A stretch of DNA of 59,318 bases from a virus (lineage: Duplodnaviria; Caudoviricetes). Positions 6,667 to 49,288 of this stretch are shown here, piece by piece. A program made the position numbers and the translations under genes. Within the stretch, counting starts at the first letter, position 1; each line of letters opens with the position of its first letter. Under the pieces are notes generated by a model. That model worked only from the letters and a program-made list of their open reading frames with translations. It searched no databases and was not told the DNA's origin. The stretch is from positions 1 through 59,318 of the IMG/VR virus record IMGVR_UViG_3300023174_000187; one strand, given 5' to 3'.

Positions 6667-6977
6667 ATGAATTGAACGACCCACGCGACATAGCAGCCTA
6701 CGCAGCAGATTTGGTGTCGCAAGATAGAAACGAGTCCTACGGTCACCCTCTCGACGACTTCAACCGAGCAGCAAAAATTTGGTCAGCAATTCTTGGTGTT
6801 GAGGTATCCGCAGAACAAGTAAGTCTTTGTATGGTCGGCGTAAAAATTGCTCGCGAAGTTCACGCAACTAAACTTGATAATGCGGTAGATGGAATTGGAT
6901 ATTGGTTGACGCTAAGAATGATAAAAGAAAAGCGGGCTGAACTAGCGCGTTTAGGAGAAGAACAAAGCAAAAAGTAA
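6663..6977 (+). CDS. DUF6378-like protein
   Basis: [17 protein letters not shown]...KIAR...DN.VD..GY. Confidence 0.8.
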
Positions 6978-6979
6978 TG

Positions 6980-7069
6980 TACAGTTCAGGTAATCGAGTC
7001 CTAAGAGACCCCGCCTACGGCAGAACCCTAGAGGTCATCGTGGTACGGGGTTTTGCTGTCTAAAAGGAG
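6980..7069 (+). promoter_or_regulatory. Tail-operon leader: -10, tandem GAGNCC boxes, terminator-like stem, RBS
   Basis: TACAGT 6980; GAGTCCtaaGAGACC 6996-7010; GAACCCtaGAGGTC 7023-7036; GACCCCG/CGGGGTT stem followed by a T run; AAGGAG. Confidence 0.65.
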
Positions 7070-7074
7070 ACACT

Positions 7075-7287
7075 ATGACCCAGTATCGCGTGTTAGCGGG
7101 GATTGACTACCCGCCGTCAAAAAGAGCCGAGGTAGGGGATATTGTTACAGACCTGCCAACAGCACAAATCAAAAATCTTTTGGAAATTGGTGCAATCGAA
7201 CTCGCAGACGGAAAGTCTAAGTCTGAGGTAAAGGTCGAAGAAACCGTTGTTGAAGAAACAACATCCACAGACAGTGAGGAAGAATAA
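7075..7287 (+). CDS. Small virion-operon protein
   Basis: RBS present; GDIV.DLP...LL..GAIE motif, typical before tail-tube genes. Confidence 0.75.
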   Translation: MTQYRVLAGIDYPPSKRAEVGDIVTDLPTAQIKNLLEIGAIELADGKSKSEVKVEETVVEETTSTDSEEE

Positions 7288-8018
7288 TGCCTACATTTCG
7301 CCACGGTAAAAACACAATAGTTTTGTTAGATGGTTACGATGCAAGTTCTTATTTCAATGAATCAACAACAAGTCGCTCGATTGAGACTAGCGAAACAACT
7401 TCATTCGGTTCAAGCGCAAAAACTTACATCGCTGGACTAAAAGATGGAACTTTGTCACTTTCAGGTATGTTTGACGGTTCAACAAATGCAATTGACTCAA
7501 TTTTCAACAGTATCGCGGGTTCAGCAACAGATTCAATCGTGACTGTTGGTCTTGAAGGCAGCACAATTGGCACAATCGCCCATATGGTCGGAGTTCAAGA
7601 AACTTCTTACGAAGTTACTTCTCCAGTAGCAGATGTCGTTACAGTTTCAGCAGAATTTCAAGCAGACGGCGGACTTGATTCAGGTCGCGTTCTTGCTCCA
7701 GCCACGGTTGTAACAACAGCAACAACAACAAACAACACTAGCGTTGATAATGCAGCAGCGACTACTAACGGAGGCGTTGGTCATGTTCATGTGACTGCAA
7801 ACGCTAACAATGGTACGACCACAATCAAGGTACAGCACTCGACCGATAACTCGACTTGGGTTGACTTGATTACATTCTCAACAATTGCAACAACCGTAAC
7901 GGCTGCTCGTCGAGTAGAAGTTGCGGCTGGAACAACAGTAAATCGTTATTTGCGAGCGCAGATAACTACAGCAGGTACAGGTTCAATCACTACTAGCGTC
8001 GCGTTTGCGCGGAGGTAA
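7287..8018 (+). CDS. Tail tube protein paralog 1 with C-terminal extension
   Basis: ETTSFGSSAKTYIAGLKDGTLSLSG; Thr-rich C-terminal domain. Confidence 0.75.
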   Translation: MPTFRHGKNTIVLLDGYDASSYFNESTTSRSIETSETTSFGSSAKTYIAGLKDGTLSLSGMFDGSTNAIDSIFNSIAGSATDSIVTVGLEGSTIGTIAHMVGVQETSYEVTSPVADVVTVSAEFQADGGLDSGRVLAPATVVTTATTTNNTSVDNAAATTNGGVGHVHVTANANNGTTTIKVQHSTDNSTWVDLITFSTIATTVTAARRVEVAAGTTVNRYLRAQITTAGTGSITTSVAFARR

Positions 8019-8023
8019 TAAAA

Positions 8024-8440
8024 ATGCCAACATTTCGTCATGGTAAATCAGCAGTATTCAAAATCGGTTCATCAGGTGCGCCAGGAACAGCGACAGCAAT
8101 TTCTGATTCCCTAACCGATGTAAGTTTTCCACGCTCAATTGAGACCGCGGAAACAAGTGCATTTGGCTCATCAGCAAAAACTTATGTTGTTGGTTTGACA
8201 GATGCAACAATCTCAATCTCAGGAACATTTGATGCAACTTATGATGCCCAGTTAGCAGGTTTGGCTGGCGTTGATGGAGTAGCGTTCGAGTATGGTCCCG
8301 CAGGTTCAACAAGCACATTTGTCAAGTACACAGGAACCTGCGTATTGACTTCATATGAAACATCAGCGTCAATCGGTGATGTAATCAAGTTCACAGCCGA
8401 GTTCCAGGTGACTGGTGCAATCACTCGCGGTACTTACTAA
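8024..8440 (+). CDS. Tail tube protein paralog 2
   Basis: ETSAFGSSAKTYVVGLTDATISISG...FQVTGAIT. Confidence 0.8.
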   Translation: MPTFRHGKSAVFKIGSSGAPGTATAISDSLTDVSFPRSIETAETSAFGSSAKTYVVGLTDATISISGTFDATYDAQLAGLAGVDGVAFEYGPAGSTSTFVKYTGTCVLTSYETSASIGDVIKFTAEFQVTGAITRGTY

Positions 8441-8468
8441 TAGCAAGTAAAATTCAATAAACCCAACC

Positions 8469-8482
8469 GAGTCCTAGAGACC
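8469..8482 (+). promoter_or_regulatory. Tandem GAGNCC box upstream of the chaperone RBS
   Basis: GAGTCCtaGAGACC, nearly identical to 6996-7010. Confidence 0.65.
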
Positions 8483-8499
8483 TACAAGAAGGAGTTACC

Positions 8500-8883
8500 G
8501 TGTCCATTAGAGACCTTATCCTCACCAGCCAAGACATCCCAAGTGAAATTGTGGATGTTCCCGAATGGGGAGTAAAAATCGAAGTCCGTGGTATGACAGG
8601 TGCATCTCGCACCCGAATCATGGATTTAGCAGTTGGAAATGAAGGTTCGGTGAATCTTCAATTCGTTTACCCCGAGATTGTTATCGCAACAGCGTATGAC
8701 AGCGAAACTGGTGAGCAGATATTTGAACCTAATGACAAGGACACTCTCCTTGCTAAGTCAGCAATTGCAATTGACCGAATTGCATCGGTTGGTATGCGTC
8801 TATCAGGATTCACACAAGAATCAGCGGACGCAGCGGGAAAAGATTCCTCCGCAACGGCTACCGAAGATTCGTCTTTGAACTAG
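8500..8883 (+). CDS. Tail assembly chaperone (G)
   Basis: VDVPEWG..IEVRGMTG; lies between tail tube and tape measure. Confidence 0.85.
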   Translation: MSIRDLILTSQDIPSEIVDVPEWGVKIEVRGMTGASRTRIMDLAVGNEGSVNLQFVYPEIVIATAYDSETGEQIFEPNDKDTLLAKSAIAIDRIASVGMRLSGFTQESADAAGKDSSATATEDSSLN

Positions 8884-9026
8884 CAGAACGCTTAGGGAGG
8901 ACTGTCAGCGAATTACTTTATGGCAGTCCTTCCCACAAGCCTATTTCTGCCGAAGAATTGAACGAATGGGAATCGCTAGAGCGGTTGCGGGTCTTTGAAC
9001 AAGAACAAGCAATGAAGAAAAAATAG
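8835..9026 (+). CDS. -1 frameshift extension of the tail chaperone (G-T)
   Basis: Slippery G GGA AAA at 8835-8841; -1 frame reads RFLRNGYRRFVFELAERLGRTVSELL...EW to TAG 9026. Confidence 0.85.
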   Translation, partial: GKRFLRNGYRRFVFELAERLGRTVSELLYGSPSHKPISAEELNEWESLERLRVFEQEQAMKKK

Positions 9027-9036
9027 GAGGTGAAGC

Positions 9037-12000
9037 GTGGCAACTGTTGTTGATTTGTTAGCAAGGTTCCGCGCCGATACCTCGAATTTTAGTGCGGGAA
9101 TCCAAAAAGCCCGTACAGATATGTTGGCTTTTGAAAAATCCGCTTATGGCGGTGCAGGTAATATCGGAAAAGGTTTTGACGGGCTAAACAGCAAAAGTGT
9201 TGCTTTAGGTGCAGCAATTGGTACTGCTATCGGTCAAGTTGCAACACAAGCATTGTTGAAGGCTGGACAGGCTGCAAAATCATTTATTGTTGATAGCGTC
9301 AAAGGAGCATCAGACCTAAACGAATCCACAACAAAAACAGAAGCAATCTTTGAAGGTGCAACCGACACCATCATGAAGTTTGCTAGTGGAGCGGCTACAG
9401 CAATGGGTCAGTCTAAGCAACAGGCTTTAGACGCTGCTGGCACTTTTGGTATTTACGGTCGTTCGGCTGGTTTGTCAGGTCAAGCACTCGCTGATTTTGC
9501 TATGCAGCAAACAGCACTAGCATCAGATTTGGCTTCTTTCTATAACAAGAGTCCCGAAGAAGCGATTGTTGCTCTCGGGGCTGCTTTCCGCGGTCAAACA
9601 GAACCAGCCCGTGCTTTCGGTGTTCTTATGGACGATATGTCTATGAGAGCAGCAGCACTCAAATTGGGAATCATTTCAAGCACAAAAGAAGCATTGACTC
9701 CTCAAAATAAAGTTTTGGCTGCTAACGCTTTGATTATGGAACAGACAAAGGTTGCTCAAGGCGACTTTGCTAAAACATCCGCTGGTCTTGCTAACCAACA
9801 GCGTATTTTGGCAGCACAGTTGACTAACACTAAAACACAATTTGGTCAGGCTCTTTTGCCTACAGTTTTGTCAGTCGTAGGTGCTTTCAACACCCAAGTA
9901 CTGCCAGCGTTTACAGCAATGTCAGATAAATTCAAAACTCTTGTTTCAACAATTACAAGTCAGGTTGCTCCAGTTTTTGCTAATCTAAAAACAGTATTTT
10001 CAAATCTAATTACCGCAATAGGTCCAACAGTTTCAATGATTGGTGGATTGTTAGCAATTGCTTTTGTAACAGTTGTAAATGTAGCAAAACAATTCACATC
10101 GGTTTTGGCAAGCGTGACTGGTTTCTTGGCTAAAAACAAGGGAATTGTTATGGCTATTGCAGCGGGCTTCATCCTTCTTGGTGGTGCTATCGCTGGAGCG
10201 ACGCTTGCTTTCAAAATCCAAATGGCATTGACAAAAGCGTATGCGGTTGTGCAAGTATTGATGAATCTCGGAAACCTCGCAAGTATCGCTTCAACAAATA
10301 CGCTTGCAGCGTCAATGTTGGCTTTGAACGCAACACTCCGCGCTAATCCAATTGGTGCGATTGTGACAGTTATCGCGCTTTTGGTCGCTGGTCTCATTCT
10401 TGCGTGGAAAAAATCTCAAACATTCCGCGATGTAGTAGCAAAAGTTTTTGAAGTCGTTGCAAATGTTGTTTTCTTGGCTATCAAAGCAGTTCTTTCATAT
10501 ATGAAAATGATGGTCAATTTTTGGATGAGCGCAGCAGAACTTGTTCTCAAAGGCGCAGTCAAAATGTTTGGTTGGATTCCTGGAATCGGCGGAAAAGTAA
10601 AAGCGGCAGCAGCAGGTTTTGAAAAACTTCATGATGGGGTAAATGACACCTTTGATAAAGTTATCAAGGGCGCAGAAGGTATGAAAAATAAAGTAACCGC
10701 TGCCGTAAAAGGTGCAGCAAAAGCAGCGGGTAAATCAGGAGATGATGCTAAAACTAAGTCTAAAACCAAAACAAAAACAAAAAATAAAGTTACAGATGCG
10801 GTAGTTCCACCAAGTACAGAAGATTTGAAGGCTAAAGCAGATGAACTTCTCAAGACTCGCGGAGAAGGTGCAGCAAATATCGCAGGTATGCTCAAGTCAG
10901 TTCTTGGTCAACCAAATGATTTGCAAAAGGCTTTAGGTGGTGTTACTTCTACAGCGGACTCCATCATTTCATCTTATGAAAAAACAATGGATGCAGTTGG
11001 CTCTCGCTTGAAGGATATAAAAGGTCCTAAAAAAGATGCTTTGATGAAGTACTTGAACGATTCATACACTCAACTTTTGGCTTATGCTAAAAAGCGCGAT
11101 GAAGTTGCTAAAAAACTTGAAGCAGCACAAAAGAAACTTGAAGATGCGGTTGCGAAACGAGATGACTTCGCTGCTAACACCAAAAAGTCATTGTCAGATT
11201 TTGCTACAGCAGCAGGAATCCTTTCTAAAGAAGATGCAGTAGCGGTTGTAAATATTGTAAAAACTGCAACTGGATATATGTTGACTCAGGCTAAAGGTGG
11301 CACAAGTGTAGTTGACGGAATTACAACTCAACTAAAAGCCCGACTTGAACAAATCACTACATTCTCAAAAAACATAAAGAAATTGTTGGCTAATGGTCTA
11401 AATAAAACTTATGTTGAACAACTATTGACCGCAGGTCCCGAAGCAGCGGGCGCAACAGCAGCAGCCCTTGTTGATGCAAGTAAAACACAAATTGGTGAAA
11501 TCAATGGCTTGTACACAGATATAGCAAAAGTTTCCGATTCATTCGGAACACAAATGGGCGAATCTATGTACGGAGCAGCAGTAAAATCGGCTCAAGGTTT
11601 AGTTGATGGTTACCAAGCGCAATATGACGCAATTGTTGCAGCAATGGACCAAATTGCAGCAGGAATTACAGCGGTTCTTGAACCTCTTGGTAAAGAAGGT
11701 AAGGCATTGGGCGACGCAATGACTCAAGGCTTGCTCGACTCTATTGACGCAGCAATTCCAGGACTTGTAGCAAAAGCAAAAGAACTTGCGGATAAAGTAG
11801 CGGCAGCAATGAAGGTTGTTGTTCCAAGTGGAAATACAACTACAGATACATCTAAGAAACCAGTTGTAGTTCCTAAAACGGGAACAGGGACAACAAATAC
11901 AACCACACTTGCAGGAATTATGTCCGCTAGTTATATGGCTCCATATTCCAAGCCAGCACCAGTTCCAGTTCCAGTTCCTAAGGCTAAAACTGACCGTGAA

Positions 12001-18686: not shown

Positions 18687-18834
18687 ATCTTGCATGGAAG
18701 GTGGCAAGGCTAACCGCGATGGAGATATTGAAAAAGCAATGAATTTTCATAGCGAGTGCGAATTCAAAGATTGTTGTTGTCAACACAAGACCAACACGGT
18801 TCACACAGAATCAGGAATCCACTTTTCATCGTGA
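18676..18834 (+). CDS. Small Cys/His-rich protein (not in ORF track)
   Basis: MICKSC...H..C..KDCCCQH; AAGGAG RBS. Confidence 0.6.
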   Translation: MICKSCMEGGKANRDGDIEKAMNFHSECEFKDCCCQHKTNTVHTESGIHFSS

Positions 18835-20066
18835 AATCAATCATTGCAGGAGCGCAAACAGTTGCGGTAGCGGAGTTACGCGAATTTCCGAATAACCCCC
18901 GCCGAGGTGATGTTGAATTGATTATGGAGTCTTTGTCTTACCACGGTCAATATCGCCCAATTGTTGCTAATCGCCGAACCAAAGAAGTATTGGCGGGATG
19001 GCACACGCTCATGGCTGCAAGAAAACTCGGATGGCAAAACATCCAAGTCACATGGATTGATGTTGACCCAATAACCGCCAAGCGCATAGTTCTAGCGGAT
19101 AACCGCATGAGCGACCTTGCTAGTTATGACGACACAGCATTGTTAGACCTTTTGATGTTGTTGAGTGACTTAGAAGGCACGGGTTTCAATAAAGATGATT
19201 TGTTGAAACTTGAAGCAATAGTTACAGGTGAAATTGAAGATGAGTTACTAAACCCAAAAGAACCAGTTGAACAAACCAAAGATGAAGATTTCAAAATCAA
19301 GGTAAAAATTGGAAAGTTCAAATGGGAAGTTGAGTATGACCCATTCTTTATGTGGAAAACAGATTTGTTGGCTCAACACATGGATTCAAAAGAACGCGTT
19401 GGTTATGAATTACGCGAGATGTTAGGTTTCCCGCCTCCTGAACCAAAACCAGCAAGAGTCAAAGGTTCAGAAATTGGTGCAGACGCAGTTATCAATGTTG
19501 AACAAGTTCCAGTTATCGCACTCAAACCTTTAGCGGGAAATGCGCGAACAGGTGACATCGGCGCAATCACCCAAAGTCTCATGACATTCGGACAATACCG
19601 ACCAGTTGTTGCTCGCCGTGATGGAACAATTCTTGTTGGTAATCACACAGTAGAAGCAGCCCGCGCCCTCAAATGGGAAAAGGTTTCCGTTGTATGGCTA
19701 GATGTTGATGACGAAGAAGCAATCCGAATCGCCATAGTTGATAATCGAACAACAGATATGGCAGGATATAACGCAGAAAATCTAAAATTGTTGTTGTCCG
19801 AAGTGAATGATTATTCAGGTACAGGATTTAGTCAAGAAGATGTAAGTGAAATTTACGCTGGTGGTTCAACAAAGCCAGGACATAGAACAGGAACACAAAT
19901 CTCCATTGAAATTGGAGAATTTAGATTTCGAGTAACTAAATCCGTTTGGGATGAATGGCGGAAACAGTTGCCCGAAAATTATGTAGAAGTAGAGTTGATA
20001 AAGCGACTCGAACTTCCACTCGGCGCGTGTTGGAAAGGACTGGACAAGGTGAGTACAAATGGCTGA
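18831..20066 (+). CDS. Protein with two tandem ParB/Srx-like domains
   Basis: Twice the pattern N.R.GD...I..SL...GQYRP.V.....L.G.HT..AA...DNR; GTG start overlapping the upstream TGA. Confidence 0.85.
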   Translation: MKSIIAGAQTVAVAELREFPNNPRRGDVELIMESLSYHGQYRPIVANRRTKEVLAGWHTLMAARKLGWQNIQVTWIDVDPITAKRIVLADNRMSDLASYDDTALLDLLMLLSDLEGTGFNKDDLLKLEAIVTGEIEDELLNPKEPVEQTKDEDFKIKVKIGKFKWEVEYDPFFMWKTDLLAQHMDSKERVGYELREMLGFPPPEPKPARVKGSEIGADAVINVEQVPVIALKPLAGNARTGDIGAITQSLMTFGQYRPVVARRDGTILVGNHTVEAARALKWEKVSVVWLDVDDEEAIRIAIVDNRTTDMAGYNAENLKLLLSEVNDYSGTGFSQEDVSEIYAGGSTKPGHRTGTQISIEIGEFRFRVTKSVWDEWRKQLPENYVEVELIKRLELPLGACWKGLDKVSTNG

Positions 20067-20706
20067 TATAGACCCAATGAAAGTGGAGGTTGTAACTTTA
20101 GACAAGTTGCACCTAGACCCACAAAATGCTCGAAAAGGTAATGTTCAGGCAATCGCGGAATCATTGCGAGAGTTTGGTCAACACCGAGCAATTATCGCTC
20201 AAAAAAACACAGGCAGAATCATTTCGGGCAATCACACATTCTTGGCAGCCCAGTCTTTAGGTTGGAATTCTGTGAATGTGTTTTGGGTTGACGACGACGA
20301 TGAAAAAGCCTTGCGTCGCGGTCTTGCCGATAATGCAGTAGGCGACCAAGCAAAATGGGACGATGACGCGCTTCGCAAGTTGCTCAACGAAACAGGCACA
20401 GATGTTCCTGGACTCGACGCTGCTCAGGTTGCAAAACTTTACAAAGACATTGAAGAAACAATTCCGAAGGAAGCAATTTATCCACTTTTGGCAAAGCCAG
20501 GAGAATATTACGATTATGTAATGTTCTTCACGGAGTCAGAATTGGATTCATTATTTATTCGCTCATTGTTTGATGGTAAATGGGTTTGTTGGAAGGCTGA
20601 AAAGCGTCCAGCGTCTTGGTCTCATATGCTCCCAGTATCCGAACTCCGTAAAGTGTTTGAAGCACACGGAATAGTCCCTGAAATGAAACAACTAGATGAA
20701 GCGTAA
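20059..20706 (+). CDS. ParB/Srx-like domain protein
   Basis: NARKGN..AI.ESL.EFGQ, IISGNHT, LADN. Confidence 0.85.
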   Translation: MADIDPMKVEVVTLDKLHLDPQNARKGNVQAIAESLREFGQHRAIIAQKNTGRIISGNHTFLAAQSLGWNSVNVFWVDDDDEKALRRGLADNAVGDQAKWDDDALRKLLNETGTDVPGLDAAQVAKLYKDIEETIPKEAIYPLLAKPGEYYDYVMFFTESELDSLFIRSLFDGKWVCWKAEKRPASWSHMLPVSELRKVFEAHGIVPEMKQLDEA

Positions 20707-21478
20707 AAAAGATGAAATTGCCATTGTCGTTCCGTCAATGGGCAGACCTGATTTGCTCAGTACTCATAAGGTTTTCTTGCCCGAGCGTCTTGATATTTGC
20801 GTACCTGACTCGGAAATAGAAAAATATAAAAAGGCTCATCCCGACCTCAAAATTGTTGGACACCCTGACAGCGTTCATGGAATTTCCGCCAAGCGTCAAT
20901 GGATTTACGAAACCTACGGCGATGTAGTCATGATTGATGACGACATCGGCAAAGTTGCTTGTCTTGAATATGCAGTAGGAGAAAAGGCTAGAAACCTTGA
21001 CCCAACAGCAGCAACAGGTTTGTGCGACCGCCTAGCAGAAGAAACCCGCCAATTTGGTGCGTATTTGTTCGGAGTATCAGCAAGCGCAGTTCCTCATTAC
21101 TATGTATCAGGTTTGCCATATCGCACTTGGGGATGGGTAAACGGAGGCTTCACAGGACTTCTCAAGGGTTCAAAGTTGGCTTACAATCCCGAAATCGCCT
21201 CATCCGAGGACTATTGGATTTCAGCCATGAACGCTTACCATCATCGCAAGTGTTTGATTGATACCCGATACGCCTTAGTAGATGTTTCAGGCAGTGGGAC
21301 AATGAAAACTAAAGGGGGGATGGCTTATACTCGCAGTCTTGAACGAGAAAGTCGAGACATAGAAATTCTTCAAAGATTCTTTGGAGATGCAATCAAGCGT
21401 CGCGGTCGTATGGGCGTAGCGCACCAATTACACGAACACCAAAAGATGTTGGAGATACCGTGGGCGAAGATGAACTAA
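20696..21478 (+). CDS. GT-A glycosyltransferase, TAGT/GREB1-like
   Basis: IVVPSMGR, KRQWI, MIDDDI (DxD), EDY, GG motifs. Confidence 0.7.
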   Translation: MKRKKDEIAIVVPSMGRPDLLSTHKVFLPERLDICVPDSEIEKYKKAHPDLKIVGHPDSVHGISAKRQWIYETYGDVVMIDDDIGKVACLEYAVGEKARNLDPTAATGLCDRLAEETRQFGAYLFGVSASAVPHYYVSGLPYRTWGWVNGGFTGLLKGSKLAYNPEIASSEDYWISAMNAYHHRKCLIDTRYALVDVSGSGTMKTKGGMAYTRSLERESRDIEILQRFFGDAIKRRGRMGVAHQLHEHQKMLEIPWAKMN

Positions 21479-41601: not shown

Positions 41602-42063
41602 ATGAAACTCACAAAACGCGGAAAAATAGTAAGAAATGTAATAGCAGCAATAGTTGGTTTACTTGTATGGGATGCAGCAACATCATTTGCAGCAGACACC
41701 CCAACCCCCGTTGTAGAAACGGCAACAGTTACAGAAATATCATTCCCGCTAGAAGCATGGACTCCAGCCGTAGCAAAGATTTATAGTCAATTCGCTATGG
41801 ACGAATATGGTTGGGGAGATGCGCAGTTCGCTTGTTTGAACGCGCTATGGACTAAAGAAAGTCACTGGAATTGGAAAGCCAAGTCGCCTACAAACGACTA
41901 TGGAATTCCTCAGCGCAATATGCCTGATAAAACCGAAGCAGAAATCAAGAAGTTCTTGTCCGACCCAATTGGACAGATTTCATGGGGACTCGGATATATT
42001 TCCCATCGCTATAAAAGTCCATGCAATGCAAAAGCGCACTCAGACCGAACTGGATGGTATTGA
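41602..42063 (+). CDS. Secreted lytic transglycosylase (SLT-like)
   Basis: Signal/TM; CL.ALW..ES.W, YGIPQ, Q..WGL.YI..RY..PC.A..H...GWY. Confidence 0.85.
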   Translation: MKLTKRGKIVRNVIAAIVGLLVWDAATSFAADTPTPVVETATVTEISFPLEAWTPAVAKIYSQFAMDEYGWGDAQFACLNALWTKESHWNWKAKSPTNDYGIPQRNMPDKTEAEIKKFLSDPIGQISWGLGYISHRYKSPCNAKAHSDRTGWY

Positions 42064-42185
42064 TGTCTAATCCCGAGGACAACGAAAAGTTGTACGCCCT
42101 TTTGATGAAAGAGCGTTACGGGGATGAATGGCAAAAGTCACAAAATGTTATGGACGAAAATGACGATTAGCCCTACACTTGGCGA

Positions 42186-42473
42186 GTGCCAGCACCCACC
42201 GATTACCCGTACTTTGACGGAAGCCAAATATGCGCAAGCGTTGATGGTGAATTGTGGTTCAGCGACACTCCGACAGGTAGGCGAACTGCCATCAATCTAT
42301 GCAACCAGTGTCCGTTTCAGGCAGAATGTCTTGAATACGCGCTTCATTGGAGCGTGGAAGGAATTTGGGGCGGGACAACCCCAAAGATAAGAAAAGCAAT
42401 AAGAAAAAAACGCAAAATCAGACCGAAGCCAATCGTGTTTGATTTTCCTAGCCAAAGGACTCAAAATGAGTAA
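42186..42473 (+). CDS. whiB: WhiB family transcription factor
   Basis: C...D.ELWF...C..CP....CLEYAL....GIWGGTT...R. Confidence 0.92.
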   Translation: MPAPTDYPYFDGSQICASVDGELWFSDTPTGRRTAINLCNQCPFQAECLEYALHWSVEGIWGGTTPKIRKAIRKKRKIRPKPIVFDFPSQRTQNE

Positions 42474-42864
42474 CCCAATCACAGTAGTAGGAACAGTAAC
42501 AAAAGACCCTGAACTCAAATTCATCAACAGTGGTAAGGCGATAATAAAGTTTTCGGTTGTCACAAGTAAGAAAAAGAAAAACGATGACGGTTCTTGGGAA
42601 GATACGGGAACAACATATTGGGACATTACAGCGTGGGATGTTCTCGCTGAAAATGCAGCAGATGTGCTTATGAAGGGAACGCAAGTTGTGGTTCTAGGCA
42701 CTGCCGAATCCCAAGAATGGAACGACAAGACCACGGGCGAAAAGAAAAGCAAGTTGGGCGTTACCGCTCAACACATTGCAATATCTTTGAAGAAGTCTCG
42801 CCCAAAGAATGATTCATTCCAAACTAAGCAACAAGCAGATTCGTGGGATACTGCGCCATTCTAG
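42466..42864 (+). CDS. ssb: Single-stranded DNA-binding protein
   Basis: ITVVG....DPEL.F..SG, W..LAEN, C-terminal APF. Confidence 0.92.
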   Translation: MSNPITVVGTVTKDPELKFINSGKAIIKFSVVTSKKKKNDDGSWEDTGTTYWDITAWDVLAENAADVLMKGTQVVVLGTAESQEWNDKTTGEKKSKLGVTAQHIAISLKKSRPKNDSFQTKQQADSWDTAPF

Positions 42865-42897
42865 TGAGAATGGTTCAACCTGCTCTATACTGCTTGG

Positions 42898-43068
42898 ATG
42901 GAACCCGAGTCATTTGACCAATTTGCTGGCTTGAGCATATTGCAACAAGCGTCAGCACAAATGAACGAGTTGTTTACTTCTTTGTTGGATAGTGGGTTCA
43001 ATGAGAAACAAGCGTTGTACCTTGTTTCACAAATGATGGTTCACACTTCATATGATGATGGTGAGTAG
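42898..43068 (+). CDS. Small protein, leaderless (not in ORF track)
   Basis: TATACT-6nt-ATG; ELF.SL..SGF.E.QAL.L. Confidence 0.65.
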   Translation: MEPESFDQFAGLSILQQASAQMNELFTSLLDSGFNEKQALYLVSQMMVHTSYDDGE

Positions 43069-43073
43069 GTAAA

Positions 43074-44345
43074 ATGGCAGAAGATATGAATATGCAGGAG
43101 ATTGGCTCTACTGGTCTGCGTCGTGCGGGCGGTACAGTTACAGAAGAATTTCTTCTCAATCTTCGCGGGCGACGCGGTGCTAAGACTTATCGCGAAATGT
43201 CAGACAACGACCCAGTTGTCGGTTCGATTCTTTATGCTATTGAAAAAATCATTCTTCGCCTTGAATGGCGCATTGACCCCGCTTCCGAAGATTTAGTTGA
43301 TGTTGAAGCAGCAGAATTTATTCAATCATGTATGTACGATATGTCCGATTCATGGGACTCAACAATGTCAAGTATTTTATCAATGTTGGTATTCGGATAT
43401 TCATGGCATGAAATTGTTTACAAAATTCGCGGTGGTGAATCAGATGACCCAACCAAGAAGTCAAACTTTGCAGACGGAAAAATTGGATGGCGCAAATGGG
43501 CTATCCGTGCGCAAGAAACTCATAACCAATGGGTCTTTGATGAAGATGGTGGAATCCAAGCGTTTCAACAAGTTGACCCGTGGGGTGCTGGTATGCACAC
43601 CATCCCAATTGAAAAATCTTTGTTATTTCGCACAAGCACACAGAAAAACAACCCCGAAGGTCGTTCACTTCTCCGAACCGCATACCGCCCGTGGTATTTC
43701 AAAAAGCGCATTGAAGAAATTGAAGCAATCGGCATTGAACGCGACCTTGCTGGACTTCCAGTTGCATATGTTCCGCCCGAGTATTTGTCAGCAGATGCAA
43801 CAGCGTCTCAAAAACAAGTATTGGCTTCAATTCAAGCCATCGTGCAAAATGTAAAGCGTAACGAACAAGAAGGTATCGTTTTCCCACAGGTGTATAACGA
43901 AAACGGCAACAAGATGTTTGATATGACCTTGCTATCAACAGGTGGTTCACGCCAGTTTGATACAGACAAGGTAATCAACCGCTACGACCAGCGCATTGCA
44001 ATGTCTGTGCTTTCAGACTTCATCCTTCTCGGTCATGAACGAGTAGGCTCATTTGCGCTAGGTTCGTCAAAGATTGACCTTTGGACAATGGCAGTTGACG
44101 CAATTTGTAAGTCAATCGCAGAAGTAATCAATCAACACGCAATTCCAAGATTATTGACATTGAACGGAATGAAATTGGAAAAGACACCTGAACTTATGTA
44201 CAGTGAAGTAAGCCATGTTGAACTAAGCGAAATCGCAGAATATGTATCCAAGTTGACACAGGCAGGAGCATTGAGTCCTGACGCAGCAACCGAAAAATAT
44301 CTTCGCGATTTAGCAGGTTTGCCGTCAATTGACGAAACACTGTAA
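43074..44345 (+). CDS. Portal protein (DUF935-like)
   Basis: FGYS.HE.VY, NPEGRSLLR..Y, ER...G.P, GSFALG. Confidence 0.9.
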   Translation: MAEDMNMQEIGSTGLRRAGGTVTEEFLLNLRGRRGAKTYREMSDNDPVVGSILYAIEKIILRLEWRIDPASEDLVDVEAAEFIQSCMYDMSDSWDSTMSSILSMLVFGYSWHEIVYKIRGGESDDPTKKSNFADGKIGWRKWAIRAQETHNQWVFDEDGGIQAFQQVDPWGAGMHTIPIEKSLLFRTSTQKNNPEGRSLLRTAYRPWYFKKRIEEIEAIGIERDLAGLPVAYVPPEYLSADATASQKQVLASIQAIVQNVKRNEQEGIVFPQVYNENGNKMFDMTLLSTGGSRQFDTDKVINRYDQRIAMSVLSDFILLGHERVGSFALGSSKIDLWTMAVDAICKSIAEVINQHAIPRLLTLNGMKLEKTPELMYSEVSHVELSEIAEYVSKLTQAGALSPDAATEKYLRDLAGLPSIDETL

Positions 44346-45937
44346 TGCCTTATGTATTCCAAAAAGCCAATGACCCCTTTGCGGATAATGCGGGGCTAAC
44401 GGCAAACGAGCGTAGGTTGCTTCAAACTTATATTGATGGTTTGAAGAAATTGAATATAGCGACAAATGACCCAAAGGTTATGGCTCGTATCATGGAACAG
44501 GTAAAAGCGGGCAATCCTCTTTCCGCTGCAAACTTAGTGCCGTGGGAATCATTCACTCAGTCACTTGATGCAACTATTCCGCTTGTAGGCGCACAAATGG
44601 CAATCTCGGCTAACTTAGCAATCACACAGTTGCCAAAATACATTGATTTCAAAATGAAGTTTGATTTGACCGACCCACGGGCAATTGCTTATGCACAAGT
44701 GCGCTCAGGCGCAAGTATTAGACAAATCAACGAATACTCTCGACAAGCGGTTGCAAAAATTATTCAAGATGGTTTGCGCTCCAATCTTTCAATAGAAATG
44801 GTTGAAGCAAAAATTCAAAAAGTTGTTGGTCTTGATGGTCGCCAAGCAACAGCGTTGTCATCTTTTTACGACAGGACAATCAAAGAAGGAACAGCAAAAG
44901 GTTTATCTTTCAAAGATGCAGTTGCAAGAGCAGAAAAACTAGGAGACCAATACCGAGACAGACTTTGGAAACAACGCGCAGCCCGAATCGCCCGCACCGA
45001 AATTGCTACCGCAGCAAATGAAGGTCGTGCTTTAGCGTGGCAAGAAGCCTATAACGCAGGATTGATTCCTGACGGCTCAAAGAAAAGATGGGTAACTGCT
45101 GTTGATGAAAGAACTTGTCCTCAATGTTCGGAATTGAACGGTCAATTAGTTGATTGGCAAGGAATTTTTTCTATAGGTAAAGAAATGCCTCCTGCTCATG
45201 TCAATTGCCGATGTTCAGCCGTAATTGCTCCAACAGAACCTAGTGCAAAGCCAAGTTCACAAACAACCGAATATGAAGGTTACAAACTACAAGACCCAGT
45301 TGACAAGATAAGCACAAGTCGCGGACAAGTTGATAAAGTTGCTACCCAATTGCGTGATGCTTCAAAAGCAGTAGAGCCAAAAATTACAAAAGATATGATT
45401 GATTTGTCTAAGGCTAATGACGGCAAAATGATTGGTTTAGAAAACCGACTCAAAACACAAGCGTCATTGTCAGAAAAGATTAGTACTCGCGCAGGTAAAT
45501 CAAGTCTTGTTGATGCTACTGGACAAATTCATGATTCGGTTCGCTATACAATGAAGTTTGACGACAAAAACTATGTTCAAAGTACAAGTAATGTGATAAA
45601 CGAATTACGCGCTAAAGGTTATGTTGTAAATCCAAAAAACAATTGGTCAAAAGGTAATCCTTACTACGGAGTAAATGCTCAAGTTGTTACTCCAACAGGC
45701 GTAAAAATGGAGTTGCAGTTTCACACCAATTCATCTTTGTCGTTGAAAGCAAAGACGCACCCAATTTACGAAGAATTGCGAATCAGTAAAGACCCTGTAA
45801 TTCAAACCGCACTTCATAAAGATATGTTGGCTTTGGCTCAAAATGTAAAGTTCCCCGCAGGAGACATCAATTTATTGGGAACGCCAATACAAGCAGAAAT
45901 TGGTAAAAGTTTAGTAATGATAGGATTTCGTAAATGA
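44345..45937 (+). CDS. MuF head morphogenesis protein with C-terminal RelA/SpoT-like domain
   Basis: RIARTE, DERTCP.C, PPAHVNCRC; then RLKT..SL..KI, DSVRYT, KN.W...PY.GVN, ELQFHT. Confidence 0.85.
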   Translation: MPYVFQKANDPFADNAGLTANERRLLQTYIDGLKKLNIATNDPKVMARIMEQVKAGNPLSAANLVPWESFTQSLDATIPLVGAQMAISANLAITQLPKYIDFKMKFDLTDPRAIAYAQVRSGASIRQINEYSRQAVAKIIQDGLRSNLSIEMVEAKIQKVVGLDGRQATALSSFYDRTIKEGTAKGLSFKDAVARAEKLGDQYRDRLWKQRAARIARTEIATAANEGRALAWQEAYNAGLIPDGSKKRWVTAVDERTCPQCSELNGQLVDWQGIFSIGKEMPPAHVNCRCSAVIAPTEPSAKPSSQTTEYEGYKLQDPVDKISTSRGQVDKVATQLRDASKAVEPKITKDMIDLSKANDGKMIGLENRLKTQASLSEKISTRAGKSSLVDATGQIHDSVRYTMKFDDKNYVQSTSNVINELRAKGYVVNPKNNWSKGNPYYGVNAQVVTPTGVKMELQFHTNSSLSLKAKTHPIYEELRISKDPVIQTALHKDMLALAQNVKFPAGDINLLGTPIQAEIGKSLVMIGFRK

Positions 45938-46170
45938 TTCGTTATTTTGCCGAGGCTAAAATTGATAACACAATTTACGCCATATACAGGTACAGGTATC
46001 AAAAAGAATTGATTTATGAAGAAGCATGGAATCCCAACGCTAATGCTTGGCAAAAAACAACAGATTTGACGGGCTTGTTTGTAGGAGGCGACAGTTCTTT
46101 GATGGAAGTTAGTCAATCAGATGCCCAAAATGCGTTTCCGAACGCTTTTACAGTCAACCGTAAGGGATAA
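45934..46170 (+). CDS. Candidate immunity protein for the MuF toxin
   Basis: ATGA-coupled 78 aa; W...W.....G......EVS..DA. Confidence 0.6.
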   Translation: MIRYFAEAKIDNTIYAIYRYRYQKELIYEEAWNPNANAWQKTTDLTGLFVGGDSSLMEVSQSDAQNAFPNAFTVNRKG

Positions 46171-46177
46171 TGGAAAG

Positions 46178-47362
46178 ATGTCATACAAAATCAAAATGGA
46201 TGTTCCTGATGCCATCGAAAAGGCTACTGCAACAGAACTTGAACACCTCCATGCAAAGTTTCACGAAAAGTATGACTCCCCTTCATCCGATGTAGTTATC
46301 GAAAGTCACCATTGGCTCACACAAGGGCTTACTAAAATGGGTATTCGTTTACCCTCTGAACCCGATTGGGAAGCCGCTATAGTCGCGTCACAGTGGGAAA
46401 TAGAAGTAAACGGACTCGACCTCAAAGAAATGGGTTTGACATCCGACCCAATGGTCGCGGACTTAGTTGAAAAGCACCAAGATTTCATTCTTAGCGAAGT
46501 TGTTAGCAATAAGTCGCGGAAACTTGTTATCAAAATTGCGGAAAGCGAAACCTTCACCCCGCCAGCGGGAGTAATCGCGGAAGGCAAGCGGGCTTTAGAA
46601 TGGATAAAAGAAGGTCACGCAGGAGACGGATTTACAGGTGTTGGTCGCGCTCGCGCAGCACAGTTAGCAGGGGGCAAAGCGGTCTCTTTGACTACCTTGC
46701 GACGCATGAATTCATATTTCATCCGTCACGATAAAGATTCAGAAGGACAAGGTTACAAGCCCGACCAAAAGGGTTACCCAAGTCCAGGTCGCGTCGCTTG
46801 GGCAGCGTGGGGTGGAGATGCAGGTAAGTCATGGGCGGAATCAATCGTAAGTCGTGCGGATAACGCAGAAAAGTCAGCGGACTTTGATGTAATCAAACAA
46901 GTTGACGAGCGCAGATTTACTTTAGGTCCAATGTATATCCCTGACCGCCTAGATGCTCATGGTGAATGGACGGATGCTAACGAACTCCAACAAGCAGTTT
47001 GGGATTATGTAAAATCAGGAGACCGCCGTATTCGACTTCAACACAACAAAGATGTAGTTGCGGGTGAGTGGGTAGAAGTTATGACCTTCCCCTATCCACT
47101 CACAGTTCCCATGACAAAAGCAGATGGTTCAGCAGAACAAGTTACATATCCTCCGAATACCGTGTTCCTCGGAGTCCAGTGGGATGATTGGGCTTGGGAG
47201 ATGGTCAAGGCTGGAAAACTTCGCGGTTACTCCATCGGAGGAAAGGCTTCACGCTTAGAAGCAGACATTCCTCAACTTGAAGAAAAAGCCGATGGTCCAA
47301 CGGTTTCAGATGTTCATGTTGATACAATCATGGGCGGTAAACCGAGACGAAGGAAAAACTAA
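46178..47362 (+). CDS. Multidomain protein with C-terminal XkdF-like prohead serine protease
   Basis: D.HGE, LQH, W..VK.G.LRGYSIGG; middle domain G..RA.QL...R..S...RH..AW..WGG. Confidence 0.8.
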   Translation: MSYKIKMDVPDAIEKATATELEHLHAKFHEKYDSPSSDVVIESHHWLTQGLTKMGIRLPSEPDWEAAIVASQWEIEVNGLDLKEMGLTSDPMVADLVEKHQDFILSEVVSNKSRKLVIKIAESETFTPPAGVIAEGKRALEWIKEGHAGDGFTGVGRARAAQLAGGKAVSLTTLRRMNSYFIRHDKDSEGQGYKPDQKGYPSPGRVAWAAWGGDAGKSWAESIVSRADNAEKSADFDVIKQVDERRFTLGPMYIPDRLDAHGEWTDANELQQAVWDYVKSGDRRIRLQHNKDVVAGEWVEVMTFPYPLTVPMTKADGSAEQVTYPPNTVFLGVQWDDWAWEMVKAGKLRGYSIGGKASRLEADIPQLEEKADGPTVSDVHVDTIMGGKPRRRKN

Positions 47363-47922
47363 TGGCATTTGTTATGAAGAACCAATCAAAAGTTGTAAAA
47401 TCAAATGCTCCTGTTGAAAAGGTTGACCCGTTGATGGATTTTTACTACATTGACGAAGCAGACAACGAGGAAACAACCGTTGATTTGAACTCAGCGTTGC
47501 GCGAGTTGTTAGCAAATAACTTTTCTGTTTACCTACGCGCCCACGGTTATCACTGGAATGTAAAAGGAATCCACTTCGCTGCATATCATGAATTTTTCGG
47601 TGAGATTTACGAAGATTTGTATTCAGCCATTGACCCAACAGCAGAATGGTTGCGCAAGTTAGGTTACGACGCTCCATACACAATGGAGGAGTTCTTGGTT
47701 GACCGCAACATCAAAGATGCGTCTAAGCAGGTTGCACTATCAATGATGATTCAATCTTTGCTCCAAGCGATTGAGGCTCTTGAAGAATCCACAGAACATT
47801 GTTTAGAAATTGCGACAGCAGAAGATGAACAAGGGCTAATAAACTTTTTGAGCGAGCGTATCGGTATGCTCGAAAAATGGGAATGGCAATTGAATACTTC
47901 CGTAAACGAAGGATTCATCTAG
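47362..47922 (+). CDS. dps: Dps/ferritin-like protein
   Basis: HGYHWNVKG..F...HEFF.E.Y, D..AE..R.LG, EK..W.L. Confidence 0.85.
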   Translation: MAFVMKNQSKVVKSNAPVEKVDPLMDFYYIDEADNEETTVDLNSALRELLANNFSVYLRAHGYHWNVKGIHFAAYHEFFGEIYEDLYSAIDPTAEWLRKLGYDAPYTMEEFLVDRNIKDASKQVALSMMIQSLLQAIEALEESTEHCLEIATAEDEQGLINFLSERIGMLEKWEWQLNTSVNEGFI

Positions 47923-48551
47923 TCTTTGTCGTTTTGTTCCTTGTCTCCCCGTAACGATGCAGGAGCAAAATACTCATAGTTTCTTTTTGGAAGTTTGAAA
48001 CCGTCTTTGATAAATACCGATGTGCATTTGTCTTGATGGTCTTCAAAGCGAATTCCCCAAAATGGAATTTCTGTGTAACCCGATTGATAAAGAAAATCAC
48101 ATTGATTTGGAAACCACTCGCTATTGTCAACAAAAATTAGACTTGGTTTGCCCTTAGAAATCAAACTCTTGGTTGTTTTTAGGCGATTGCCGTTGCTATC
48201 AATAAAGACAATCGTTTTATCCCCAATTTTTAGATGGTAGTTGCCATTTTCAAGATTGCGCTGAGTCAAAAGGCGAAAGTCAATTTTTCCAATATCGGGC
48301 AAAAGTTTGTTGTAATAAACATGGTTGGTCTCTAAAGATGTATAAGTTTTGGTTTTAGATGGAAAGTAAAGAGTAGAATTGCCCGCTCCCAACTCAATCA
48401 TGTCCCAATCGGAAAAGTCATAAGAATTGAACCAATCCAAAAAAGGCAAAGACAGCATCGGATAGATGTCCTTTGACCACATACCTTTGAGTTTCATCGA
48501 AGTTAGGATGCTGGCTACCTTTAGATACTGCTCGTCAACTACTATGTCCAT
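47919..48551 (-). CDS. Methyltransferase-fold protein on the antisense strand
   Basis: IELGAGNST, FIDS..R, VDNS; leaderless TATGCT-6nt-ATG. Confidence 0.7.
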   Translation of the reverse strand: MDIVVDEQYLKVASILTSMKLKGMWSKDIYPMLSLPFLDWFNSYDFSDWDMIELGAGNSTLYFPSKTKTYTSLETNHVYYNKLLPDIGKIDFRLLTQRNLENGNYHLKIGDKTIVFIDSNGNRLKTTKSLISKGKPSLIFVDNSEWFPNQCDFLYQSGYTEIPFWGIRFEDHQDKCTSVFIKDGFKLPKRNYEYFAPASLRGDKEQNDKD

Positions 48552-48628
48552 AAGGCAAGCATATGGCGGGTGTTGTCCCGTTTCAAGCCTATGTTGGCTA
48601 TATCATTGAGGAGACGCTAGGAGCGCAA

Positions 48629-49288
48629 ATGAACGAACCGTATGATGTCTATAAGGCTGCTTGTCCTACCGCTACGCAAAATGTAGCCACAAATCTTGCT
48701 CATCGCGAGAAAGCAATCAAAGATGCAGCGTATGGTCCATTGAATCCAGCCGAACCAAATGATGAGTTTTGGAAGAAAAAAGCAGACCGATGGTCGGTCT
48801 CCATCGCAGAAGCGAAAAAATCAAGATGCGGTAATTGTGCAGCCTTTATTCAAACTACAGCGATGCTTGCTTGTATAGATAAGGGGTTGAGTGCGGGTGA
48901 CCCGACTAAAGAAAATTCTTGGGATACCATCAAGGCTGGCAATTTGGGTTATTGCGAAGCCTTCGATTTCAAATGCGCTTCGTCAAGGACTTGTGATGCG
49001 TGGATTGCAGGAGGTCCCGTCAAAAATGGAGTCAAAAAAGAATCCTTCAAAATAGGAGATTTCGTCCGTTGGGACTCCAACGGCTCTGTAGCGCAAGGCA
49101 AAATTGAAAAGATTGTTCGTGATGGAACAATCAATGTGCCGAATTCTTCATTCTCAATCAAGGGCGAGGTAGATAATCCCGCAATGTTGATTCGCATTTA
49201 CAAAAAGTTTGCAGACGGATGGAAAAAGACCGACACCCTAGTAGGTCATAAGGCTTCAACCTTGAGAAGTATTCAACCACTCACATAA
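48629..49288 (+). CDS. Cys-rich domain plus HVA1/DUF2945-like domain
   Basis: CGNC..F, GYC...DFKC..RTC.AW; FKIGDFV.W.S....GKI, VGHK.S.L. Confidence 0.65.
   Translation: MNEPYDVYKAACPTATQNVATNLAHREKAIKDAAYGPLNPAEPNDEFWKKKADRWSVSIAEAKKSRCGNCAAFIQTTAMLACIDKGLSAGDPTKENSWDTIKAGNLGYCEAFDFKCASSRTCDAWIAGGPVKNGVKKESFKIGDFVRWDSNGSVAQGKIEKIVRDGTINVPNSSFSIKGEVDNPAMLIRIYKKFADGWKKTDTLVGHKASTLRSIQPLT

Follow-up and report, generated by a model that had tools for sequence, protein, structure and literature searches.

The virus genome analysed here (record IMGVR_UViG_3300023174_000187, hereafter the window: one linear record of 59,318 bases with a completeness rating of 98% and a guanine-cytosine (GC) content of ~44%) encodes a 530-amino-acid (aa) protein that joins a MuF head protein to a RelA-SpoT-type small alarmone synthetase domain (44345..45937), and this gene overlaps the start of a gene for a 78-aa protein (45934..46170) which, judging by the ATGA junction, a homologue, co-occurrence and a predicted complex, is probably its cognate inhibitor, or immunity protein. 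Taking all of the evidence together, we consider it probable that the fusion is an active MuF-fused synthetase toxin, silenced by the 78-aa cognate inhibitor and encoded with it in a late head-gene string. The finding belongs to the known Apk2-IapK kind of MuF polymorphic toxin, here without Aph1. A sequence-only reading of the window had proposed this combination of MuF head protein, alarmone-synthetase-like toxin and coupled small immunity gene, and it holds by sequence, fold, synteny and complex prediction; both open reading frames (ORFs) are as described there, ATGA-coupled and on the plus strand, as are all genes and domains of the window given below. Published work is cited by PubMed Central number.

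In the model that we favour, the C-terminal ~200 residues would be active as a small alarmone synthetase and belong, among the toxic RelA-SpoT homologues, to the Apk1/Apk2/SaEAS group. With ATP as the donor, the enzyme would pyrophosphorylate purine nucleotides at their 3'-OH, yielding (p)ppApp, perhaps also (p)ppGpp. The small, beta-rich 78-aa protein would bind over the catalytic cleft and hold the enzyme inactive during its synthesis late in infection. The portal, fusion, small and prohead protease genes lie in one head-assembly gene string, and the MuF part would carry the enzyme into the capsid, from which it would enter the next host with the DNA. We infer the enzymatic activity, its product and the inhibition by the small protein from homology and from the structural models, and capsid loading and entry with the DNA from the biology of SPP1 gp7 (PMC10083569) and from a proposal made in PMC5576092.

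The N-terminal part of the protein carries a well-supported MuF domain. PF04233 (Phage_Mu_F) matches the MuF (SPP1 gp7) core at aa 196-292 (44930..45220) with 58.1 bits against a cut-off of 29.6 (E 1.8e-15), TIGR01641 matches with 50.9 bits against a cut-off of 39.65 (E 1.7e-13), and phrog_3517 (head morphogenesis) delineates a wider MuF region of approximately aa 89-313 (E 1.8e-34). The core is followed by a variable linker rich in Pro, Ser and Thr (aa 293-328, 45221..45328), which is recognisable by gapped, poorly conserved alignment columns and, over the first 8 residues of the C-terminal structural model, by a predicted local distance difference test score (pLDDT) below 50. The synthetase (SYNTH) domain then occupies aa 329-510 (45329..45874). 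The motifs picked out by the sequence-only reading are all present in the translation: PPAHVNCRC (aa 282-290), RLKTQASLSEK (368-378), DSVRY (397-401), YYGVN (440-444) and ELQFHT (456-461).

The motifs lie far beyond chance. The C-terminal 215 aa retrieve PDB chain 8VX3_A (labelled 'SaSAS'; SaEAS) by phmmer at E 1.7e-16, a profile built from 19 relatives finds 8VX3 at 2e-36 as the sole match at 0.01 among PDB sequences, and the C-terminal positions 1935-2124 of the NCBIfam model NF041399 (XopAD/skwp) match the domain at E 1.2e-26. The whole-protein threshold of NF041399 is not reached (92.4 bits versus 2000) and SKWP repeats are absent. The AlphaFold2 model of the domain has a mean pLDDT of 86.3 and a predicted template modelling (TM) score of 0.81. 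Foldseek ranks SaEAS first with this model (TM 0.73-0.83), followed by Tas1 (6ox6_A, 0.59-0.64) and RelQ/RelP-type enzymes and CapRel (~0.5), with a probability of 1.00 to 8vx3, 6ox6_A, 5ded, 6ewz and 7ztb. As judged by this modelling, the SYNTH fold is present in the C-terminal ~200 residues.

The active site can be compared directly with that of SaEAS. The 8VX3 crystal carries the inactivating D121A substitution in a construct that begins at G36, and the ATP-site residues of SaEAS are R124, K154, N169, E182 and Q184 (PMC12691689). Counted along the phmmer alignment, the Ala at the D121A site aligns with Asp82 of the domain, that is, Asp397 of the protein, the predicted catalytic aspartate (nucleotides (nt) 45533-45535). 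SaEAS R124, N169, E182 and Q184 correspond to R400, N444, E456 (nt 45710-45712) and Q458, identical in the alignment. SaEAS K154 corresponds to Asn429, the nearest basic residue being Lys431, two positions further on in the same predicted strand, so that five of the six positions are identical and the sixth is displaced. This displaced lysine weighs against an intact enzyme, and so does the failure of Pfam RelA_SpoT (PF04607) to match either the protein or the six frames of the window at E 10; at the same threshold, Pfam gave chance-level rows only on the C-terminal 215 aa and on the small protein. The divergent toxic relatives were picked up by the PDB and NCBIfam searches instead. The displaced lysine and the PF04607 miss would both fit a C-terminal domain that has decayed and lost its activity, serving the head in a structural capacity only. 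We hold this to be highly improbable: across 19 sequences, down to 30% identity, D397, R400, E456 and Q458 are invariant and N444 nearly so, and in the R-x-K...S...K motif K370, S374 and K378 are invariant and R368 nearly so; moreover, a conserved partner is predicted to sit on this very site (see below).

The translation also contains motifs of the Apk2 type: RYT at 400-402, GVN at 442-444 and FH at 459-460, to be compared with RYT (syn2), GxN (syn3) and YH (syn4) as given for Apk2 by Paulet et al. (PMC12226406). The FH form is also that of SaEAS in the phmmer alignment, and, because SaEAS uses or prefers guanine acceptors (PMC12691689), the RYT/GxN/[Y/F]H signature does not fix the product. 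The domain could, alternatively, be a tRNA 3'-CCA pyrophosphokinase similar to CapRel, FaRel2 and PhRel2, which would stop translation instead of making alarmones. CapRel (7ztb_A) is among the Foldseek matches, with a TM score of 0.50 by query, and toxic RelA-SpoT homologues with tRNA activity are cited in PMC12691689. We nevertheless judge a tRNA-modifying activity to be very unlikely, as the nearest relatives are nucleotide pyrophosphokinases (SaEAS at TM 0.77-0.83, Tas1 at 0.59-0.64, and the S. pneumoniae Apk2 type at 31-41% identity), and it is Apk2 and SaEAS that the RYT, GxN and [YF]H motifs match.

The small gene is real and is linked to the synthetase domain among phages. At the junction, cgtaaATGAtt, its ATG overlaps the TGA stop of the 530-aa gene, and in the related locus L001, where the large protein is 61% identical, a 74-aa gene stands in the same place with the same overlap and encodes a protein 56% identical to the 78-aa one (E 6e-34). 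An exhaustive search of 1.84 billion representative proteins returned 26 proteins of the small family at E <= 0.001, those retrieved being mostly 72-123 aa long; several long repeat proteins, P0037 among them, matched in the N-terminal half only and do not enter the family alignment, and neither does the 261-aa P0046. Linkage was assessed on 61 loci chosen through the portal protein alone, using local hidden Markov models for MuF, synthetase and small protein. The synthetase domain was found in 10 of the 61. The small gene is present in all five synthetase loci with at least 600 base pairs (bp) of downstream sequence (L001, L008, L010, L017 and L065), the other five ending at or within ~100 bp of the end of the large gene. 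A complete MuF ORF and no synthetase domain characterise 33 loci; in 31 of them the sequence runs on for at least 600 bp downstream, and none of the 31 has the small gene.

Shared descent could explain a part of this co-occurrence, since the nine loci with a MuF-fused synthetase also stand closest to the window, with portals 84-90% identical. Descent alone is disfavoured because the pairing recurs in distant lineages. In L012/L013 the synthetase is 35% and the MuF part 34% identical, and 4 nt past the stop codon begins a gene for 79 aa that is related to the small one. In L065 the portal is 59% identical, the synthetase ends an 814-aa protein that is not a MuF protein, and the small domain stands at the start of the following, overlapping gene. 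The pairing is thus seen in three diverged phage lineages, with a stop/start overlap in the window, L001 and L065. In L065 itself (6673-9872, high GC), the 814-aa protein bears repeated 'KHLxGxHDQxSHGSWA' linkers and an HExxH motif ahead of its C-terminal synthetase, and the small domain there is the N-terminus of another long protein with the same type of linker. At L008:959-3181 (also in L010, L015, L159 and L160) a third domain of ~200 aa lies past the synthetase, giving a protein of 740 aa, and in L008 the small gene still follows, as an ORF with an N-terminal extension. By eye the extra domain has a likeness to ADP-ribosyltransferases; Pfam gives it only 12.8 bits against a cut-off of 23.4, and we do not claim it as one.

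A complex prediction in which the two family alignments served as the two chains (three runs and three controls) gave a score of 0.86 (runs 0.85-0.87) versus 0.01 for the best control; of 80 solved complexes, 58 come up to this mark, as against 2 of 110 mismatched pairs, a calibration that is only rough for alignments of our own. At least 84% of contacts are common to the runs, and the pLDDT of the partner is at least 88. On the enzyme side, the confidently predicted interface comprises D397, Y440, G442, N444-Q446, E456-Q458, K468, H472 and Y475, and on the side of the small protein it comprises residues 49-58, which hold the family-conserved GGD loop (aa 51-56). The model thus places the small protein over the active site and supports binding. 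The mode reported for IapK and Tis1 is occlusion of the acceptor site (PMC12226406).

Several results bearing on the small protein count against the favoured reading. The complex score may itself partly reflect likeness to Tas1-Tis1, because that complex has been solved (6OX6). The model of the 78-aa protein is confident (pLDDT 89.7), and Foldseek found nothing for it at E 0.001; the best Z in the VIA wide structure search is 4.8, within noise, and Tis1 (6ox6_B), at rank 9 of 48,161 chains, also falls in the noise range (Z 3.5, root-mean-square deviation 3.5, 60 residues aligned). PF24154 (Tis1_ImmP) matched nothing at E 10 in the six frames of the window or of four related records, nor any of 20 small-family members by hmmscan; this model appears narrow, as the IapK candidate of the Streptococcus-like locus L002 is missed as well. 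BLASTP of the small protein against that candidate found nothing, and hhalign against it alone returned 0.5%. Against five IapK candidates (Mannheimia, Pasteurella, Aggregatibacter, Streptococcus-like and Collinsella) hhalign returned 29.6% with E 5.7e-4 over 21 columns only, a region centred on a common G-x-x-x-h-x-E-[IV]-[ST]-x-x-x-A stretch. PHROGs and NCBIfam gave nothing on the small protein, and the small-family profile yielded one row, at E 1.6, among PDB sequences. Feature matches in the ESM Atlas reach at most 0.88 and serve as leads only, one of them, at 0.86, leading to a cluster with PF24154 in 11% of its members; structure rows from the same resource include XkdF-protease, HD_4-bearing and pentapeptide clusters and name no family on the aligned part. 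The small protein therefore belongs to no named family and has no firm likeness to known immunity proteins.

The distribution of the small family outside phage heads must be weighed too, and here again the data run counter to a dedicated inhibitor. A metagenome scan with the family found 43 loci, nine of which have a synthetase domain upstream; among the 27 with at least 700 bp of upstream sequence, 20 have none. In 11 of the 43 the small gene lies directly beside a gene for a ~229-aa HNH-motif protein, on either side (these include L161, L169, L171, L174, L175, L185, L187-L189 and L195, the last with housekeeping-like genes nearby), and in L164-L166, L170 and L190 the neighbours resemble, by eye from their translations, Mrr-type and DUF262-type nucleases and DNA methyltransferases. 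Conversely, none of 45 synthetase loci from bacterial genomes holds a small-family match. A search of 301 genomes, covering the order of one Nanopelagicales metagenome-assembled genome, gave 2 weak matches and no host clue, and a search of 3 single genomes gave none. In a tree of 40 distinct small proteins (midpoint root only, a short protein and several long branches), 20 standalone copies group together with support 94/98, and the group sits within the clade, starred in the tree, that has the copies linked to 740-aa proteins, among phage-linked copies.

Two readings fit these standalone copies, namely another function of the family or orphan antidotes. Under the first, the synthetase is as described above and the 78-aa protein has some other role, such as that of an HNH or restriction partner or of a head accessory protein, its placement being due to lineage history. 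The upstream counts, the HNH and nuclease-like neighbours, the bacterial synthetase loci and the missing likeness to Tis1 or IapK all speak for such a role, which we still regard as unlikely, if deserving of serious attention. The pairing in three diverged lineages, the absence of the small gene from the 31 related loci that lack the domain, the repeated stop/start overlap, and the predicted interface on the catalytic residues with its large margin over the controls each argue for inhibition of the synthetase instead. Polymorphic toxin systems commonly have orphan immunity genes, and standalone copies are for that reason compatible with an immunity role.

The setting of the fusion gene bears on where the enzyme would act. 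The gene sits between that of the portal protein (43074..44345; Pfam Portal_Mu 9.8e-43, PHROG portal 1e-87), whose stop codon overlaps the MuF start as TAATG, and that of the XkdF-type prohead protease (Pfam Peptidase_S78_2 1.2e-11). The listed ORF of the protease starts at 46121 and overlaps the small gene by 50 nt; because the protease gene of a relative begins only past its small gene, and because an ATG at 46178, 8 nt past the small-gene stop, is preceded by a purine-rich AAGGGA/GGAAAG stretch, the true start is probably 46178 (46178..47362). A simple scan of 42800-48700 found no plus-strand terminators inside the gene string, and promoter and terminator counts in the same interval were not above those of shuffled sequence. 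Such a position fits an enzyme that is loaded into the capsid; it might instead act in the producer cell, late in infection or at lysis (for instance through host shut-off or alarmone release to neighbouring cells), with MuF merely anchoring or timing it. This second possibility draws on the statement in PMC10083569 that the role of MuF toxins is unknown, on the fact that the accessible text of the cited papers does not show packaging of MuF toxins, and on the SaEAS relatives, which work outside cells (PMC12691689). We give it a minor share of our belief: a coupled inhibitor predicted over the active site fits an enzyme that has to be silenced where it is made, MuF/gp7 is a capsid protein bound to the portal (PMC10083569), and the gene lies between those of portal and prohead protease.

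Relatives of the fusion protein place it in a variable toxin position of its phage group. Among 572 candidates, a word-indexed search found 18 proteins at E <= 0.001. Apart from the query, nine of these contain PF04233, with C-terminal identities of 59-72% and several of them on contigs of 52-58 kilobases (kb), and eight further proteins hold the synthetase domain, at 33-40% identity, on other N-termini. In sister phages (loci L020-L071, for example L032:6378-8270, L050:6377-8392, L062:6230-7999 and L042:4981-7293) the same position past the MuF domain is either empty (proteins of 308 aa) or taken up by an HNH domain (PF01844), an ADP-ribosyltransferase (PF03496), a Zeta toxin (PF06414, 1e-33), a sub-threshold DUF3626 match or long unidentified extensions of up to ~1,600 aa. 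Because the C-terminal domain varies in this manner between sister phages, the group has a polymorphic toxin position, and varied MuF C-termini are the defining pattern of MuF polymorphic toxins (PMC5576092).

Among deposited phage records, the domain is held by 128 of 50,697, with hosts named as Ralstonia (84), Streptococcus (35), Pasteurella (3), Mannheimia (2), Haemophilus (2) and Aggregatibacter (2), and with no actinobacterial host name among the 128. The S. pneumoniae phage proteins are 31-41% identical; for the prophage MuF proteins of this species the alignment covers aa 225-504, with 31-32% identity, and they are the MuF-synthetase of the Apk2 type characterised by Bartoli/Paulet (PMC12226406). 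A search across 185,579 species, each represented by one genome, gave neither a close copy nor a close prophage copy, the best matches being 29-40% identical and the highest, 40%, covering part of the protein. Approximately 20 of these matches are MuF-synthetase fusions in Collinsella, others being synthetase domains on different carriers in Actinomycetota and Polyangia. Collinsella aerofaciens has the fusion followed by an overlapping 69-aa gene, an arrangement recorded at L076:3371-5178 and ~20 further Collinsella loci (L075-L098) with fusions of ~533 aa; these look, from their gene order, like an Apk2-type module in gut Actinomycetota. Given that Collinsella genomes hold them, MuF-synthetase fusions are not new to the phylum Actinomycetota, which detracts from any claim of a new setting. 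The sequence-only reading, which had such toxins described mainly from temperate phages of Firmicutes and Proteobacteria, was broadly right on known systems and left out the Bacteroides Apk2 (PMC10083569) and these Collinsella fusions.

Lifestyle and host are approached through the rest of the window. It was noted previously that the phage lacks an integrase and probably infects Actinobacteria. As to the former, no match to Phage_integrase, Resolvase (serine recombinase), rve or AAA_31 (ParA-type) was found in the six frames of this 98%-complete record. A 97%-complete Streptococcus-prophage-like record and four related records likewise gave no integrase match by this search, so that the absence of an integrase is weak evidence. 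As to the latter, the window encodes a WhiB-like protein, and the nearest cultured portals, at 57.6% identity, are those of Arthrobacter phages of the genus Laroyevirus, with genomes of ~60 kb. No integrase or repressor is among the 94 annotated features of the Arthrobacter phage Wheelbite, and ParB-like genes are common to both sides, as a protein in the window and as nuclease genes in the closest cultured phage. These observations softly support a non-integrating lineage with an actinobacterial host. The further suggestion that the enzyme is tied to a CRP-gated programme found nothing in its favour, the window encoding no cyclic-nucleotide-binding (cNMP-binding) domain.

The literature describes MuF-fused toxins as belonging to temperate phages, with their role in phage biology stated to be unknown (PMC10083569), and the accessible text of PMC5576092 reports no known toxin domain on MuF proteins of predicted-virulent phages. 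The available literature on MuF and ppApp that we found does not treat actinobacterial or lytic phages, and published sequence lists may hold members of this clade. A synthetase-MuF fusion in a phage without signs of lysogeny would move the question from the advantage to a lysogen towards the benefit of an injected synthetase in lytic infection. If the lineage is lytic, the antidote would protect the assembling cell, not a lysogen, and the toxin would be an injected weapon of a virulent phage. The 78-aa protein adds a family of likely synthetase inhibitors without named relatives, and its standalone copies, found on low-GC metagenome contigs beside HNH, restriction-modification-like and DUF262-like genes, might point to host counter-measures. 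Were these copies captured orphan antidotes, bacteria or rival mobile elements might disarm the incoming enzyme with the phage's own immunity gene. That all of this should hold jointly (the injected toxin of a strictly lytic lineage, an antidote acting in the producer cell, and standalone relatives captured as orphan antidotes against the phage enzyme) seems to us rather doubtful.

Other genes of the window are recorded here as observations. A ferritin/Dps-like gene (47362-47922, PF00210 9.9e-16) lies directly 3' of the prohead protease gene, an unusual location within a head module. The protease as listed (46121-47362) has an N-terminal part of ~250 aa, of which residues 145-256 match phrog_2859 at 1.6e-41; the synthetase domain of the fusion protein likewise hits phrog_2859, at different profile positions. 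Since both proteins match it, and P0014 shows such a fusion, phrog_2859 appears to represent a phage protein of several domains in which the two modules are united. On the 5' side of the portal gene (41602-42864) are genes for an SLT-domain protein with an N-terminal hydrophobic stretch, the WhiB-like protein (PF02467, 1.8e-12) and a single-stranded DNA-binding protein (SSB), and the order SSB-portal-MuF is common to the window and Wheelbite. At 18756-21478 the 436-aa ParB-like protein (phrog_8071, 7.8e-91) is encoded near a glucosyltransferase-like gene, the product of which matches the PHROG beta-glucosyl-HMC-alpha-glucosyltransferase at 1.1e-22; to judge by these matches, the pair may hint at DNA modification. 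A tRNA scan of the window found none.

How does the pair compare with known systems? The closest in architecture are the Apk2-IapK(-Aph1) MuF modules in prophages of Streptococcus pneumoniae, Mannheimia haemolytica, Pasteurella multocida and Bacteroides caccae (PMC12226406, PMC10083569), in which Apk2, as an adenosine 3'-pyrophosphokinase by definition, makes (p)ppApp only. The window resembles them in the N-terminal MuF fused to a C-terminal synthetase, in a gene adjoining that of the portal, in the gene of ~70 aa that directly follows it, the product of which is here predicted over the active site as reported for IapK and Tis1, and in the common RYT, GxN and [Y/F]H motifs and the identity to the S. 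pneumoniae phage proteins given above. It differs in having no Aph1-type HD hydrolase, the presence of which is reported to be variable in the family: the window has no match to the HD protein of L002 (E 1) or to PF13328 (0.1), HD_4 and MazG searches gave nothing, and the protease gene comes next. It differs as well in its small protein, which has no firm sequence likeness to the IapK candidates, and in lifestyle, Apk2 being described from temperate phages whereas here no integrase was found and the Arthrobacter-phage relatives have no annotated one.

By profile, the domain lies nearer SaEAS than Tas1. An alarmone synthetase exported by Streptomyces albidoflavus, SaEAS makes (p)ppGpp as well as (p)ppApp; it is the best match in sequence and structure alike and shares the active-site residues as set out above, and the survey of 1,369 SaEAS-type candidates lists 39 that are linked to SPP1/MuF and 69 to XopAD/skwp (PMC12691689). 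Unlike the window protein, with its phage head carrier and coupled small gene, SaEAS has a Sec signal peptide, acts extracellularly and has no immunity gene. Tas1/Apk1-Tis1 of the Pseudomonas aeruginosa type VI secretion system (T6SS; 6OX6) shares the toxin fold and the small binding partner (Tis1, 76 aa), but has a PAAR/T6SS carrier, shows no sequence match at 0.01, and its Tis1_ImmP model leaves the window protein unmatched. The XopAD/skwp proteins share the terminal domain alone, the last ~190 positions of NF041399, whereas the window protein has neither SKWP repeats nor a link to secretion. If the pair in the window behaves like Apk2-IapK, it would be a known system, extended in an unremarkable way to a phage group that is new for it.

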